The notes below the pieces were generated by a model that made no database searches, was not told the origin of the DNA, and saw nothing but the letters and a program-made list of their open reading frames with translations. The translations under genes were made by a program, and so were the position numbers. 24,702 nucleotides of DNA, taken from a virus. Its lineage: Duplodnaviria > Heunggongvirae > Uroviricota > Caudoviricetes. Each line of letters starts with the position of its first letter. The first letter of the stretch is position 1. Positions 11,834 to 18,274 of this stretch are shown here, in pieces. The DNA is taken from positions 1 to 24,702 of IMG/VR virus record IMGVR_UViG_2713897075_000003; one strand, given 5' to 3'.

Positions 11834-11914
11834 GGCACCTTAGAAAAACGGGTGCCGGGATTGGAACCCCGGATAATGTCAAAGGCGACACAGACGCCGA
11901 AAGCGTCTTTTTTT
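11834..11914 (+). ncRNA. Candidate structured small RNA / 3' UTR element ending in an intrinsic terminator; possible c4-like antisense regulator of the downstream icd-like/ant operon
   Basis: Hairpins GGCACC(11 nt)GGTGCC and CCGGG-ATTGGAAC-CCCGG followed by the terminator hairpin. The loop ATTGGAAC is complementary to GGTTCC (11997-12002) and GTTCCAAC (12017-12024) in the leader of the downstream operon. No expression data. Confidence 0.25.
11893..11914 (+). terminator. Rho-independent terminator (GACGC-cgaaa-GCGTC followed by T7)
   Basis: 5-bp GC-rich stem, 5-nt loop, seven consecutive T residues. Confidence 0.6.
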
Positions 11915-12099
11915 GTGTCATGCCATCGCACAGCCATACGTAGCGTTTAGCTCAGAGATCAATGGTAGTGCTGGCTGGGCTGCCGAAAGGCAGGCCGGTT
12001 CCCTTTGACGCCGGTAGTTCCAACCCAGTCAGTGCTACCGCCATTGAGATTGGAACCTCACGCGGTAGCTCCTTAACTTAGTCAAAGGAGGCTGCCAAT

Positions 12100-12315
12100 A
12101 TGGCTACTATCCCTACCCCAACTCATTCTGAATTTATCTGGCGTTTCTATTCCTGCCAAAAACACCTGTATATCTGCGTCATGGCTGCTACCGAAGCAGA
12201 GGCGCGCTCATACCTTCCCAAAGAACCCTGCATTTTTGCTGCTCGCTTCACTCTTGATGCGATGGAGATCCTCAATTACTGGAATCTACCGATGAACTGC
12301 GTGGAGGTGCACTGA
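12100..12315 (+). CDS. Small ORF (71 aa) translationally coupled to the antirepressor gene; icd-like position
   Basis: Strong RBS AAGGAGG 8 nt upstream of ATG 12100; its stop overlaps the ATG of the Rha gene (ctgATGaat). Confidence 0.5.
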   Translation: MATIPTPTHSEFIWRFYSCQKHLYICVMAATEAEARSYLPKEPCIFAARFTLDAMEILNYWNLPMNCVEVH

Positions 12316-13256
12316 TGAATCTGTCCATCTCTCAAAAAGCGACAATGACCAGCATTGAGATCGCGGAACTGGTAGGAAGTCGCCAAGATAGTGTGAAGAG
12401 AACTATCGAAACACTGGCTAAAAAGAGTGTGATCCAATTTCCACAATCTGTGGAAATTGAAAATAAACAATCAGTTGGCCCTCGTCGATTTTCCAAGGCT
12501 TACATATTTGAAGGCGAACAAGGAAAACGAGACAGCATCATTGTCGTCGCGCAGCTCTCTCCGGAATTCACCGCCCGGCTGGTGGACCGCTGGCGCGAAC
12601 TGGAGAATGCCCGGGTACAGTTAAAATCAAAAGCCGAAATCCTGGCTGAAATGGCGCAAATGCATCTTGAGCATGAACGCCGGATCAACGCCGTAAATGC
12701 CCAGGTAGCCGAGGTATCAGCACAAGTATCGATGGTCGCTGAAACACTCGAGCAAATAAAGAAAGGCAATATTCCGGAAGGCTACATTGGCTACCGCCAG
12801 CTGGCGGCGAAATGTGGCCTGACTGAAGCCAAATGTCGCAACCTGGTTAACGCTTTCCGGATTCCCACCGATACGCATGAGTTTTTAACTCCAGATGGTT
12901 TGCTTGCGCGACGCTCCATTGTGGCCCTGGCCCCCTTCCGGAAAGCCTTTAAGCAGGTGATGTCGGAGGCAGAACCACGCAATAAACGCTGGTATCATCC
13001 AAAGATGGGGATGTTTCAGGCAATCCACCATCCTGTGCCTGAAAGCCCAAAGGATAATCTGTCACTACATACCGTCAGAGAGAAGATCAGGACTGGATAC
13101 GCAACAGTGTGTCGTCGTTCTTCCTGGCCTGAAGGTATATGGGTGTGGCCCGAAGGTGGATCACGAAAGCACTGGCGCACCATCCGTGACGGGAAAATCC
13201 ATGCTATTGATTTAGCTCCAGAGGATGTTATTGCTATGGACTGGATTGTTAGTTAA
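12315..13256 (+). CDS. Phage regulatory protein Rha / antirepressor (Ant-like), 313 aa
   Basis: N-terminus MTSIEIAELVGSRQDSVKRTIETLAKK...RRFSKAYIFEGEQGKRDSIIVVAQLSPEFTARLVDRWRELE is typical of Rha-family antirepressor N-domains. Confidence 0.7.
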   Translation: MNLSISQKATMTSIEIAELVGSRQDSVKRTIETLAKKSVIQFPQSVEIENKQSVGPRRFSKAYIFEGEQGKRDSIIVVAQLSPEFTARLVDRWRELENARVQLKSKAEILAEMAQMHLEHERRINAVNAQVAEVSAQVSMVAETLEQIKKGNIPEGYIGYRQLAAKCGLTEAKCRNLVNAFRIPTDTHEFLTPDGLLARRSIVALAPFRKAFKQVMSEAEPRNKRWYHPKMGMFQAIHHPVPESPKDNLSLHTVREKIRTGYATVCRRSSWPEGIWVWPEGGSRKHWRTIRDGKIHAIDLAPEDVIAMDWIVS

Positions 13257-13315: not shown

Positions 13316-13627
13316 ATGAAAAAAATAGATTTCACTTATTCTGCCGCCACACTTGAGCGGCGCTTCACCCTCATTAGAGAGTTGGAACTGTCAAAAGTCT
13401 GGTATCAAATCCTACTGGATGAAGAGTTTTCACTGATGGTTATAGCAGAAAAATTGGCTATGCCGAATGACCGGCACAAGGTCATAGCCAGCCTCGATCT
13501 GGTGACAAACAGATACTGGGAAACAGAGGAACTACATGAGGCGGGAGTAATTCGTGACCTGATGGAGAATTCCGTTCCCCGCCGCTATCGTGCAGGAAAC
13601 GGCATCTCCGTGGTTAAAGGTGTTTAA
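13316..13627 (+). CDS. Hypothetical protein (103 aa)
   Basis: ORF track; weak RBS; preceded by hairpin CCCCGGCG/CGCCGGGG (13266-13282); its stop overlaps the stop of the convergent gene. Confidence 0.35.
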   Translation: MKKIDFTYSAATLERRFTLIRELELSKVWYQILLDEEFSLMVIAEKLAMPNDRHKVIASLDLVTNRYWETEELHEAGVIRDLMENSVPRRYRAGNGISVVKGV

Positions 13628-14016
13628 AGCTCACCTGCGCGCTGTTTTTCAAGCACAGATTTAACATTTGGCGCTTTCCCTTTAAAAGAATGGAAAGTGC
13701 CACATTTTTCTGTTTTAACCTCGCGCAGAGCTTCGCCATCGGCGTTCTGCCATTGATGGGATAATGTCATATCACCGCGAGAAGGAACATCCAGCGAGTA
13801 CAGCGTGTAAGTTCCCCCCATCTCCGCATACTCCTGGAACACATAGCTCATTACGTCAGATTCAGTTTTTCGGTGTGCGTTATCAACCTTATTCCCATTC
13901 AGAAATATGGCATCTGGATAGATTTTTATATCAAACCGACCGCACTTAACTTGTAAATTTCCGGCGCTCGCGATCAAAGGGAAAGACGCCAGTAAAGCAA
14001 TAGCCAATCTTTTCAA
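13624..14016 (-). CDS. Secreted/periplasmic protein of unknown function (130 aa, signal peptide)
   Basis: TTG start at 14016 preceded by GGAGG at 6 nt; N-terminus MKRLAIALLASFPLIASA is a classic Sec signal peptide. Confidence 0.5.
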   Translation of the reverse strand: MKRLAIALLASFPLIASAGNLQVKCGRFDIKIYPDAIFLNGNKVDNAHRKTESDVMSYVFQEYAEMGGTYTLYSLDVPSRGDMTLSHQWQNADGEALREVKTEKCGTFHSFKGKAPNVKSVLEKQRAGEL

Positions 14017-14036: not shown

Positions 14037-14660
14037 TTATTGCCCGTATTTTTTACACCATTGCTCTGCCATTTGTTTGGCTAAAGGCCCGGCTACTGCA
14101 CTGTATTCTGCTGTTTTACTTTGCACACATGAAGCAGATGGTTTTTTATTTCGCTGCTCGGTTAGTTTGCGCTCATAAGCCATCATGCTATCGAACCCGG
14201 CAATATCACTTTGGCGAAGCATTCCCTTTTTAACCAAAAATTGCTGCCCCTCGGGCACCAACGCAAGCATAAAAAGTGGTTGTAATAACTCACCTAATCC
14301 TTGCTGGCGATACACTTCGAATTGCTGCCATCCCTGACTTAATCTGGAAAGAGTATCTTTGGTTGAATAACCTGTTTTTGTTATAGCTTTGTCCGTCAGA
14401 TATGCTGTATATGCAAAAACGCAAAAGTCAGTTTTACCAATAAACTGAGTTCCAACAGGCCGTAATGGAATGCCCTCTCTCTTGCAAAAGTCCATAATTG
14501 CCGCTTGTGAATGATCCCCACCAGCGTTATTCATAACCTGCTGCCCTGCCCTGAATTGTGCAGGTAACGCAGTTGCATTGGCTGTATTAACAGATACGCA
14601 TCCCAACATAGCCGCGAGCGCGGTCCCTAAAACCCTTAACTTCACTACACCGTCCTTCAT
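14037..14660 (-). CDS. Putative lipoprotein of unknown function (about 202-207 aa)
   Basis: ORF track 14037..14660. The ATG at 14660 lacks an RBS, whereas the in-frame GTG at 14645 has AAGGA 8 nt upstream and gives M-KLRVLGTALAAMLGC (signal peptide plus lipobox-like LGC), so the real start is probably 14645. Confidence 0.5.
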   Translation of the reverse strand: MKDGVVKLRVLGTALAAMLGCVSVNTANATALPAQFRAGQQVMNNAGGDHSQAAIMDFCKREGIPLRPVGTQFIGKTDFCVFAYTAYLTDKAITKTGYSTKDTLSRLSQGWQQFEVYRQQGLGELLQPLFMLALVPEGQQFLVKKGMLRQSDIAGFDSMMAYERKLTEQRNKKPSASCVQSKTAEYSAVAGPLAKQMAEQWCKKYGQ

Positions 14661-14876
14661 GTAAACAAAATGAAGTTTTATGTTACAAAAACAATCAACT
14701 ACATCAACATGATTTAGGCCAAATTTCGGTCAAAAAATAAAATCCACAAAAAGTGGTTGACACTATTTTGGAAATCACAAACTGCACATAATCCATCGCG
14801 CTAACGGCTCCCGTTGAAGGTTCTTTTGACGATTAACTTTCAGCCGAAGCGCGGTAGGGAGTCATAACGCCAAAGC

Positions 14877-14901
14877 AGGCCGCCATGTGCGGCCTTTTTT
14901 T
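14877..14901 (+). terminator. Rho-independent terminator (AGGCCGC-catgt-GCGGCCT followed by T7) 27 bp upstream of the next start codon
   Basis: 7-bp GC-rich stem, 5-nt loop, T-run 14895-14901; sits between a possible promoter region (about 14757-14791) and the RBS of the 14929 gene. Confidence 0.55.
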
Positions 14902-14928
14902 GTATCCGTCATCCGTGGAGGAAGGACA

Positions 14929-15582
14929 ATGGAAAAGATCGCAATATTCAGCCTGACCACCAGCAAGCCTCAAATGCTCACTGCAATACTGAAAGACGGT
15001 GCTCTCATTATTAACGAAGTAAAACCCCTTCCCGCGTCAGCATTGGAGCAAAAGCAAAAAATTCCTCCAGCTATAGCAGCCCTGCGGAAAAGCAAATTTA
15101 AGGTACTGGTAGACGAAATAACGCCAACGATCTCCGCTGGCACCGGAGCAAGCCAGGTGACTCTCAAGACCCGTCATGCCGATGGCAGAGCAGCAATCAT
15201 CGTCGGGATGGAAAGATACAGAGAGTTAAAACTCCAGAAGCTATTATCCCTGCCGCAAAATAACAAAGGTGCTTTCGAAATCCCTGACTCCATCGTTGAC
15301 ACCGAATACAACGGTAACGGAGAAGAAGTCTACCGGGTGAACTGGCAGGATATCAGGCCGGAACATATTCTGATGGTCCTGTGTTGCTACGCGACCGTAT
15401 ACCACAACGTTGCCAGTGCGGATTACGTAGAGCAGATGATCGGTACAGTCGAGAAAGAGCAAAAAACAGGCATACTCGCTTCGTTCCTGTCCATTATTGG
15501 GCATGAAAAAGTTAAAGCAGGCACCTCCCAGCCAAAGTCACTGGCTGGGAAAGAAGTTGATGAAGATACCGTGATACTTTGA
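14929..15582 (+). CDS. Hypothetical protein (217 aa)
   Basis: Internal ATG of track ORF 14887..15582, preceded by GGAGGAAGG; no recognisable motifs. Confidence 0.5.
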   Translation: MEKIAIFSLTTSKPQMLTAILKDGALIINEVKPLPASALEQKQKIPPAIAALRKSKFKVLVDEITPTISAGTGASQVTLKTRHADGRAAIIVGMERYRELKLQKLLSLPQNNKGAFEIPDSIVDTEYNGNGEEVYRVNWQDIRPEHILMVLCCYATVYHNVASADYVEQMIGTVEKEQKTGILASFLSIIGHEKVKAGTSQPKSLAGKEVDEDTVIL

Positions 15583-15717: not shown

Positions 15718-15910
15718 GTCATTCACTCCGTTTAATTTTTAATCTAATGCCAGCAAATGAAGCTGGCCCCCGCATAAAGATTAATGAAAGTCACTTGTCA
15801 CCAGTGAGGGGATTTATGAACCACATCCCCCTGAACTGGTGGCCTGTCTGTTTCTCGCATTTCACACCCTGCATACAGTTTCCACCAGGTTATGACTGAG
15901 AGGCTTTGTT

Positions 15911-18205: not shown

Positions 18206-18274
18206 ATGAATTGAAATCACAATCTCCAGACAATGCACCCTCGATACCTGATAAATCGACCTTTGAGGATGCTT

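Follow-up and report, generated by a model that had tools for sequence, protein, structure and literature searches.

What does an intrinsic terminator end when it stands in front of a gene and no gene on the same strand precedes it? This question is raised by the leader of mat, the gene for a maturation control protein, in the 24,702-nucleotide (nt) Caudoviricetes sequence IMGVR_UViG_2713897075_000003 from IMG/VR, which is referred to over its full length as the window. The region has 97% identity to Escherichia phage D6, and many Escherichia coli plasmids of ~90 kb match it at 100%, which identifies the window as a D6-like member of the phage P1 family of phage-plasmids. Phage P1 and its relatives are classical model phages as well as widespread phage-plasmids of the Enterobacteriaceae, in which they often carry resistance genes.

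The initial annotation had offered two readings of the hairpin in front of mat, either a leader attenuator regulated by antitermination or the 3' end of a short non-coding transcript. It is the second reading that gained support, in the form of a conserved promoter, a structured RNA of ~105 nt and a terminator that occur as one unit, and further from a co-varying complementary target, the leader of the mRNA of gene 23, which encodes the major capsid protein. That this unit specifies a short conserved non-coding transcript is well supported by the comparison of homologous sequences. As to its function, we lean on balance towards a leader-derived small RNA that would pair with the capsid mRNA, with read-through of the terminator supplying mat.

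A conserved terminator in the leader of mat

The terminator occupies positions 14877-14901 of the plus strand. It is composed of AGGCCGC-CATGT-GCGGCCT (14877-14895), in which 14877-14883 pairs with 14889-14895 to form seven pairs, six of them G-C, around the 5-nt loop CATGT, and of a run of seven T residues (14895-14901), the first of which doubles as the final base of the stem. Inspection of the sequence and a terminator scan both confirmed the hairpin with its T-run, as well as the 27 nt that separate the end of this run from the ATG of mat (14929-14931); folded alone, the hairpin has an energy of -14.8 kcal/mol (z = -3.2). The ribosome-binding site had been described as following directly on the hairpin, and it does lie 3' of it but is not adjacent, as GGAGGAAGG is found at 14917-14925, 15 nt past the T-run, and contains the Shine-Dalgarno sequence GGAGG (14917-14921, plus strand) 7 nt before the ATG. 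The absence of an upstream plus-strand gene to terminate was likewise borne out: both open reading frames (ORFs) that precede it, at 13624-14016 and 14037-14660, belong to the minus strand, and there is no plus-strand gene for 1.25 kb upstream of mat.

Viral contigs, genomes, plasmids and metagenome assemblies were searched for mat loci by similarity to the protein. The loci collected gave a set of 20 distinct leader sequences, hereafter the 20 homologues, whose Mat proteins are 49-100% identical to that of the window. Throughout this set the terminator stem is paired in 100% of cells, and two of its positions have changed in a compensatory way, from A-U to G-C and from G-C to A-U; a hairpin followed by a U-rich tract was found in every lineage, phage P1 included. 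Among the strong terminators counted throughout the D6 genome, the one before mat was the sole case in which a gene starts less than 30 nt further on and no same-strand ORF precedes, the only other orphan terminator being that of an isrK-like small RNA. Because of this complete pairing, the compensatory changes and the singular position in the D6 genome, the hairpin is not a chance feature. It is a true, conserved transcription terminator, for which transcript 3' ends are predicted at 14901.

A conserved structured RNA upstream of the terminator

The leader, or small RNA, of ~105 nt extends over 14798-14901 of the plus strand and comprises a three-way junction and the terminator. The junction is closed by helix P1, in which GCGCTAACGGCTCCC (14798-14812) pairs with GGGAGTCATAACGC (14857-14870). 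Within it, hairpin P2 (14816-14841) pairs GAAGGTT (14816-14822) with AACTTTC (14835-14841) around the loop CTTTTGACGATT, and the small hairpin P3 (14843-14855), with a GCCG/CGGT stem, contains the sequence GCGCGG (14849-14854), which is invariant in 20 of 20 homologues. When the window sequence was folded from its predicted transcript start, the minimum-energy structure was this three-way junction with the terminator, and hairpins P2 and P3 recur in the minimum-energy folds of most homologues.

Conservation of the spacer is concentrated in this element. When the spacer was aligned among plasmids from E. coli, Shigella, E. fergusonii and Enterobacter, positions 14798-14903 proved nearly invariant and the remainder divergent. 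Between lineages, identity amounts to 68-96% in the element, compared to 60-78% in the mat coding sequence and ~50% in the upstream spacer, so that the element is more conserved than the coding sequence that it precedes. Since each of the three frames of 14798-14876 is interrupted by stop codons, the element is non-coding. All 20 leaders possess a -10-like hexamer, the structured segment, the GC hairpin with its U-rich tract and the mat Shine-Dalgarno sequence, the last of these lying 13-27 nt from the terminator in every case except a Raoultella plasmid contig (L125), in which ~50 nt are inserted. This insert (contig positions 632-700) carries ATTTCACACTTCATACATAGC, which resembles a late-promoter box with a -10 hexamer; in this plasmid mat may have its own promoter 3' of the terminator, which would make the upstream RNA a free-standing gene.

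A covariance model (R1) was built from seven close sequences and then used to align all 20 homologues. It matches 14795-14902 at 135 bits, and no second match occurred in either the window or the complete D6 genome. In the resulting alignment, which was fitted to the model so that its pairing figures favour the structure, helix P1 and the terminator stem together are paired in 92% of cells, with compensatory changes on both sides in 14 of 20 pairs (12 of 13 in helix P1), and none of 500 shuffles attained these figures; sliding the 3' partners by 1-3 columns lowered pairing to 33-54%. The exchanges in helix P1 can also be read from the raw sequences, GGCTCCC/GGGAGTC of the window being replaced elsewhere by GGTTTCC/GGAGAC, TGTTCCC/GGGAACA or AGATTCTTT/AAAGAATCT, and the G-U pairs in this helix mark the plus strand as the RNA strand. 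Hairpin P2 is paired in 88% of cells, its changes being mostly one-sided with a single pair changed on both sides. A further stem, CGGCT/AGCCG, was rejected as poorly kept across homologues. A plain MAFFT alignment misaligned the terminator loops and was unsuited to RNAalifold.

The element matches no described RNA family in Rfam, neither gathering thresholds nor permissive E-values giving a match in the spacer 14661-14928; at this locus isrK (RF01394) reached 14.7 bits against a gathering threshold of 50 (E = 0.8), and C4 (RF01695) gave no match. The leader of phage P1 is predicted to fold into the same architecture of three-way junction and terminator. As the covariance models R1 and R2 gave no match to the phage P1-type leader, the phage P1 and D6 leaders are called equivalent here, by position and predicted architecture only, rather than homologous. 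The mat genes of Vibrio and Photobacterium are without the element. On a Photobacterium damselae plasmid (L090, 1056-1121), a simple hairpin with a strong terminator, lacking the three-way junction, follows a PadR gene and lies ~70 nt 5' of a distant mat homologue; the Vibrio alginolyticus locus (L091) has neither.

A late promoter and the predicted transcript start

Upstream of the element lies a late promoter of the Lpa type (14772-14792, plus strand), which consists of the box AAATCACAAACT (14772-14783), the spacer GCA and the -10 hexamer CATAAT (14787-14792). Our analysis defines a D6-type late-promoter consensus, AAATCACAnAnT-N3-TAnnnT, of which the copy in the mat spacer is a perfect example. 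The same arrangement of box, N3 and TAnnnT was found 5' of eight further D6 late genes, namely 23, pmgB-sit, R, prt, 7, 26, lydA and upfC. In phage P1, the late promoter LPmat is annotated at the equivalent position, where it overlaps the sigma-70 promoter Pmat and a C1 operator.

A TTGACA hexamer at 14757-14762 (plus strand) had been taken as the neighbourhood in which a short transcript would begin. The hexamer is present, and many homologues keep it as TTGAC(A/C/G), but its spacing is non-canonical, 24-26 nt from the -10. In the window, CATAAT is the sole good -10-like hexamer in reach and lies 24 nt downstream, a gap too long for a canonical sigma-70 promoter; a start at ~14798-14800, at the foot of helix P1, is for this reason most likely. 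In phage P1, the annotation assigns the equivalent TTGACA to Pmat as its -35 element, the spacer being 19 nt.

The D6-type consensus is unlike the -22 box of phage P1, AAGTGACTT. Elsewhere in the window, late-promoter copies were seen on the plus strand at 15859-15879, 5' of gene 26 (ATTTCACACCCT-GCA-TACAGT), and at ~18213-18240, 5' of gene 7 (TCACAATCT at 18217-18225), and another copy of the box, TCACAAACT, lies on the minus strand at 440-448.

Complementarity between the leader and the capsid mRNA

The leader segment TGAAGGTTCTTTTGACG (14815-14831, plus strand), which is made up of the 5' strand and the loop of hairpin P2 and includes CTTTTGAC at 14823-14830, is the exact 17-nt complement of the start of the D6 gene 23 mRNA, which begins with CGTCAAAAGAACCTTCA just past its late promoter. 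This match was first noticed by eye among the upstream regions of late genes, the genome-wide and shuffle checks being made afterwards. Against the full 91-kb D6 genome, the leader has no longer Watson-Crick run than this one, for which the chance expectation is ~0.001. The target is outside the window, ~18 kb away, and shares a contig with a mat region whose Mat is 100% identical to that of the window (L010, L147).

In the six lineages for which both leaders were obtained, the pairing site is fixed at -44 to -28 from the capsid start codon, and the best ungapped helix forms at the same two positions in six of six, with 0-3 of 300 shuffles reaching it. For D6 and the window, this helix has 17 base pairs (bp), all Watson-Crick, and for the MINF_7C type 18 bp with one G-U pair; it has 17 bp with one G-U pair in the Shigella type and 17 bp with three in Enterobacter hormaechei, and no shuffle out of 300 matched any of these four. 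Leclercia has 11 bp ungapped, or 14 of 15 bp overall with one G-A mismatch (3 of 300 shuffles), and differs from D6 by two compensatory double changes (U-A to A-U and A-U to G-C). Phage P1 shows 13 bp of a different sequence, TGGATCCCTTTTC with GAAAAGGGATTCA (1 of 300 shuffles). Across these lineages, a leader segment complementary to the 5' untranslated region (UTR) of gene 23 is, at the level of sequence, kept through sequence change. Complementarity of the leader to the neighbouring C4 and isrK RNAs was not above that of shuffles.

The predicted fold of the free capsid 5' UTR suggests what such pairing would do. In this fold, UUCACG pairs with CGUGAA, a helix that includes the GUG start codon and co-varies between D6 (UUCAC/GUGAA) and Leclercia (CUCAC/GUGAG, within CUCACA/UGUGAG), and a GCCC/GGGC hairpin holds the Shine-Dalgarno sequence AGGG. 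The small-RNA site overlaps the UUCA of the start-codon helix, and the hairpin around the Shine-Dalgarno sequence, which it hides, has CCGCGC in its 5' side, for which the leader offers a complement in its invariant GCGCGG; on both counts, pairing should open the capsid translation start.

If the pairing is true, it also predicts sequences that can be looked for, as the gene 23 leaders belonging to the mat leaders L130/L133, L131/L132 and L126 should be the complement of TGAGGTTTTTTGGCG, TGATGGAATTTTTGAC and GGAGAGTTCTTTTGAC, respectively. Locus searches based on the capsid protein did not return the intermediate clades. The search pattern ACGCCGCGCCCGAA was dropped as too unspecific in viral contigs, and plasmid NZ_MK356558 was excluded because it is too error-ridden.

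Attenuation by an alternative fold

An attenuator of the kind considered in the initial annotation should possess an antiterminator fold that competes with the terminator, and the search for such folds that had been suggested there was carried out. When the leaders of the 20 homologues were cut before the 3' strand of the terminator and folded, no consistent partner emerged for its 5' strand, so that this reading lost its ground: no conserved pairing competes with the terminator. An alternative stem, 14795-14802 with 14848-14855, appears in the minimum-energy fold of 14757-14905 and was rejected, being without covariation and reached by 56 of 500 shuffles. A leader peptide was not found either, as the leader contains no Shine-Dalgarno sequence with a start codon and the stops in all frames of 14798-14876 described above. 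If the hairpin terminates as predicted, mat can be expressed only through read-through or factor-dependent antitermination, because the terminator sits in the leader of this gene.

The start and the predicted nature of Mat

The mat gene (14929-15582, plus strand) encodes a maturation control protein of 217 amino acids, annotated in D6 and similar to phage P1 mat; the protein of the window is 99.5% identical to D6 Mat and 33% identical to phage P1 Mat. In all lineages the protein alignment begins at the ATG at 14929. A variant of the T-run with eight T residues, together with indels in the G-run and T-run of P1-like sequences, shifts the frame of upstream starts; Mat therefore starts at 14929, and upstream in-frame starts are ruled out. 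In the phage P1 reference (L006, NC_005856, 1384-1497), Mat is annotated from an ATG 111 nt upstream of the shared start, and the extension covers the leader structure and the terminator of phage P1 itself. The true phage P1 Mat probably has ~213 amino acids, not 250, which would correct the Mat start in the reference annotation.

No Pfam family was found for Mat. Its AlphaFold model has a predicted local distance difference test (pLDDT) score of 77, with residues 1-160 confident, and resembles the nuclease domains of large terminases (G20c, P74-26, SPP1, T4 gp17) as well as RuvC-type resolvases, with Foldseek probabilities of ~1.0 and template modelling (TM) scores of 0.40-0.45. Mat consequently looks like a nuclease and not like a transcription factor acting on its own leader, and the 'maturation control' protein may be a DNA-processing nuclease. 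The idea that Mat is itself the antiterminator of its leader was dropped on account of this resemblance to terminase nuclease domains.

A proposed mechanism and its alternatives

During lytic growth, the late promoter at 14772-14792 would initiate an RNA near 14799, and the nascent RNA would fold, forming the closing helix P1, hairpin P2 with its U-rich loop, the small hairpin P3 and then the terminator. Most transcripts would end at ~14901 and release the small RNA of ~105 nt, and the fraction reading through would be the mat mRNA or, in many relatives, the mRNA of a mat-26-25 operon. The released RNA would act in trans wherever the two RNAs meet in vivo, its segment 14815-14831 pairing with the first ~17 nt of the gene 23 late mRNA; this would open the capsid translation start and is expected to activate or stabilise. 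For the capsid, activation is what the folds predict, with protection of the mRNA 5' end or repression as alternative outcomes. A wider and more doubtful proposal, which we hold only tentatively, is that of an RNA circuit coordinating head assembly, in which the late small RNA would unlock the capsid start and read-through would set the level of Mat, as a predicted terminase-nuclease or RuvC-like protein. If true, one promoter and one terminator would balance capsid synthesis against a DNA-maturation nuclease.

Several observations weigh against pairing with the capsid mRNA. Whole-molecule RNAduplex energies beat those of shuffles for D6 only (4 of 400) and in no other lineage, as the RNAduplex background is raised by long internal loops; the contiguous-helix statistic alone is significant. 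About half of the proposed seed is in the stem of P2, which would need opening, the Leclercia duplex contains its G-A mismatch, and the contact between GCGCGG and CCGCGC is not colinear with the main helix and, as a 6-mer, could be chance. The lineages share ancestry, so that the six cases are not independent. Moreover, in the mosaic plasmid NZ_CP061751 a mat leader of the Klebsiella type occurs together with a P1-type gene 23 leader that does not match it. Finally, the element is always attached to mat, even where everything upstream differs, which argues for an action that is also, or only, in cis. The mosaic plasmid (L241, NZ_CP061751.1; 380-590 and 18975-19100), with its natural mismatched leader pair, is itself heavily disrupted by insertion sequence (IS) elements and a group II intron.

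The constant attachment to mat leads to the main rival, a purely cis-acting leader in which the terminator would damp or gate mat, the three-way junction would be a processive antitermination element, and the capsid match would be without function. The junction could then act by itself, like the put RNA of HK022, or through a phage or host factor, in the manner of nut. Such a role is supported by the strict linkage to mat, the element being invariably fused to this gene 13-27 nt before the start codon while the upstream neighbours vary. It also agrees with a structure that does not overlap the terminator, as would fit processive rather than hairpin-competition control, and with a nuclease-like Mat, for which tight control would be sensible. 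Phage P1, too, is said to show strong indications of encoded antiterminators, none of which has been identified (PMC10695390), and the mat locus offers a concrete conserved terminator in a late leader on which this suspected antitermination can be tested. We nevertheless regard an action in cis alone as unlikely, because it leaves unexplained the co-varying complementarity, at a fixed position, to the gene 23 leader. Neither an antiterminator protein candidate nor a conserved alternative fold was found, and an RNA that always licensed read-through of the adjacent terminator would make that terminator pointless.

Other explanations of the match are less likely. The 17-bp sequence could be an operator in double-stranded DNA, bound by a late regulatory protein and placed in opposite orientation just 3' of the mat and gene 23 late promoters; both sites are indeed within ~35 bp of the predicted late transcription starts, and a DNA motif would likewise co-vary between phages with its binding protein. 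Six of the seven differences between the paired sites, however, are of the C/T-opposite-G kind, compatible with G-U pairing, which keeps an RNA duplex and makes DNA sites unequal, and an RNA duplex is therefore favoured over a shared DNA motif. With the site not found at other late promoters, and the mat copy forming part of an RNA structure whose G-U pairs are strand-specific, we consider an operator quite improbable. Still less probable is an effect in the reverse direction, whereby the 5' end of the abundant capsid mRNA would pair with the mat leader and alter its termination, stability or translation, so that Mat would follow capsid mRNA. The same complementarity and the cis linkage of the element to mat would fit this equally, but the terminator is more than 45 nt away from the site and the mat Shine-Dalgarno sequence more than 85 nt, and no direct route to either is visible. 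That the hairpin is a relic or an insulator without regulatory meaning seems very improbable indeed. In phage P1 the gene ref lies 5' of mat on the same strand, and the terminator could once have served an upstream gene of this sort; in that phage, though, the terminator lies 3' of the mat promoters and not before them, and a relic would not account for the strong conservation of a structured RNA with covariation. The small RNA that pairs with the capsid mRNA, with read-through supplying mat, is consequently the explanation that we prefer.

Neighbouring genes and RNAs

Divergent from mat, the minus-strand ORF at 14037-14660 is simB-like by comparison with D6, and has 207 amino acids in the window compared to 298 (897 nt) in D6. 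It is followed by an ORF of 130 amino acids with a signal-peptide-like N-terminus (13624-14016, minus strand), in a region that varies among D6-like elements. Further upstream, the immunity region of the window contains two small RNAs in tandem, both on the plus strand and found with Rfam: an isrK-like Hfq-binding RNA (11835-11913, 62.7 bits), of a family described in the Gifsy-1 prophage, stands directly 5' of the C4 antisense RNA (11958-12045, 77.1 bits), and both are ahead of icd (12100-12315) and ant (12315-13256).

Comparison with known systems

No description of the mat leader RNA was found in the literature searched, which did not extend to the first publication on mat (Lehnherr et al. 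2001) or to that on the P1 genome, and a 2025 review of phage-derived small RNAs mentions neither P1 nor capsid targets. The RNA is probably a regulatory small RNA of P1-like phage-plasmids that had not been described before. It points to an undescribed RNA family, without a match in Rfam, whose predicted target is the major capsid mRNA, and, if this target is true, it would provide a clear case, in one of the classical model phages, of a phage structural gene under the control of a phage small RNA.

The arrangement of promoter, short leader and intrinsic terminator recalls the PR'-6S RNA-tR' region of lambda, where a short leader transcript stops at an intrinsic terminator as long as RNA polymerase remains unmodified, and the put sites of HK022, where a structured leader RNA acts directly on polymerase. 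The likeness is architectural only, and in the mat leader the structure is upstream of the terminator instead of overlapping it, the terminator following just 6 nt past the structure. To our knowledge, no Q-like or N-like protein exists in P1-like phages, and current accounts of late control in phage P1 invoke nothing beyond promoter activation by Lpa.

With regard to the predicted action on the capsid start, small RNAs of the DsrA/RprA-rpoS type free a ribosome-binding site that is occluded by a helix in the 5' UTR, by pairing with the upstream strand of this helix. Compared to these, the outcome for the capsid mRNA is predicted from folds only, and the seed of the mat leader RNA is partly in a stem. 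C4, from immI of P1 and P7 (RF01695), is likewise a structured small RNA of the same phage family, the loops of which pair with a phage mRNA leader. It differs in belonging to an immunity circuit, in being processed from the transcript of its own target and in repressing that target, whereas the mat leader RNA would be a late transcript with its own terminator, and shows neither a match nor special complementarity to C4.

In IsrK of the Salmonella Gifsy-1 prophage (RF01394), one promoter gives rise to a short terminator-ended small RNA and to a read-through mRNA, and the short form pairs with the 5' region of the mRNA, switching on its translation by a structural change (PMC4825925). IsrK targets its own read-through isoform, whereas the target proposed here is a different late mRNA, that of gene 23, and the two RNAs have no homology in sequence or structure, the mat leader forming a three-way junction and IsrK a series of hairpins. 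By analogy, IsrK is nevertheless the closest described system and offers a precedent for a leader small RNA that is accompanied by a read-through mRNA isoform.

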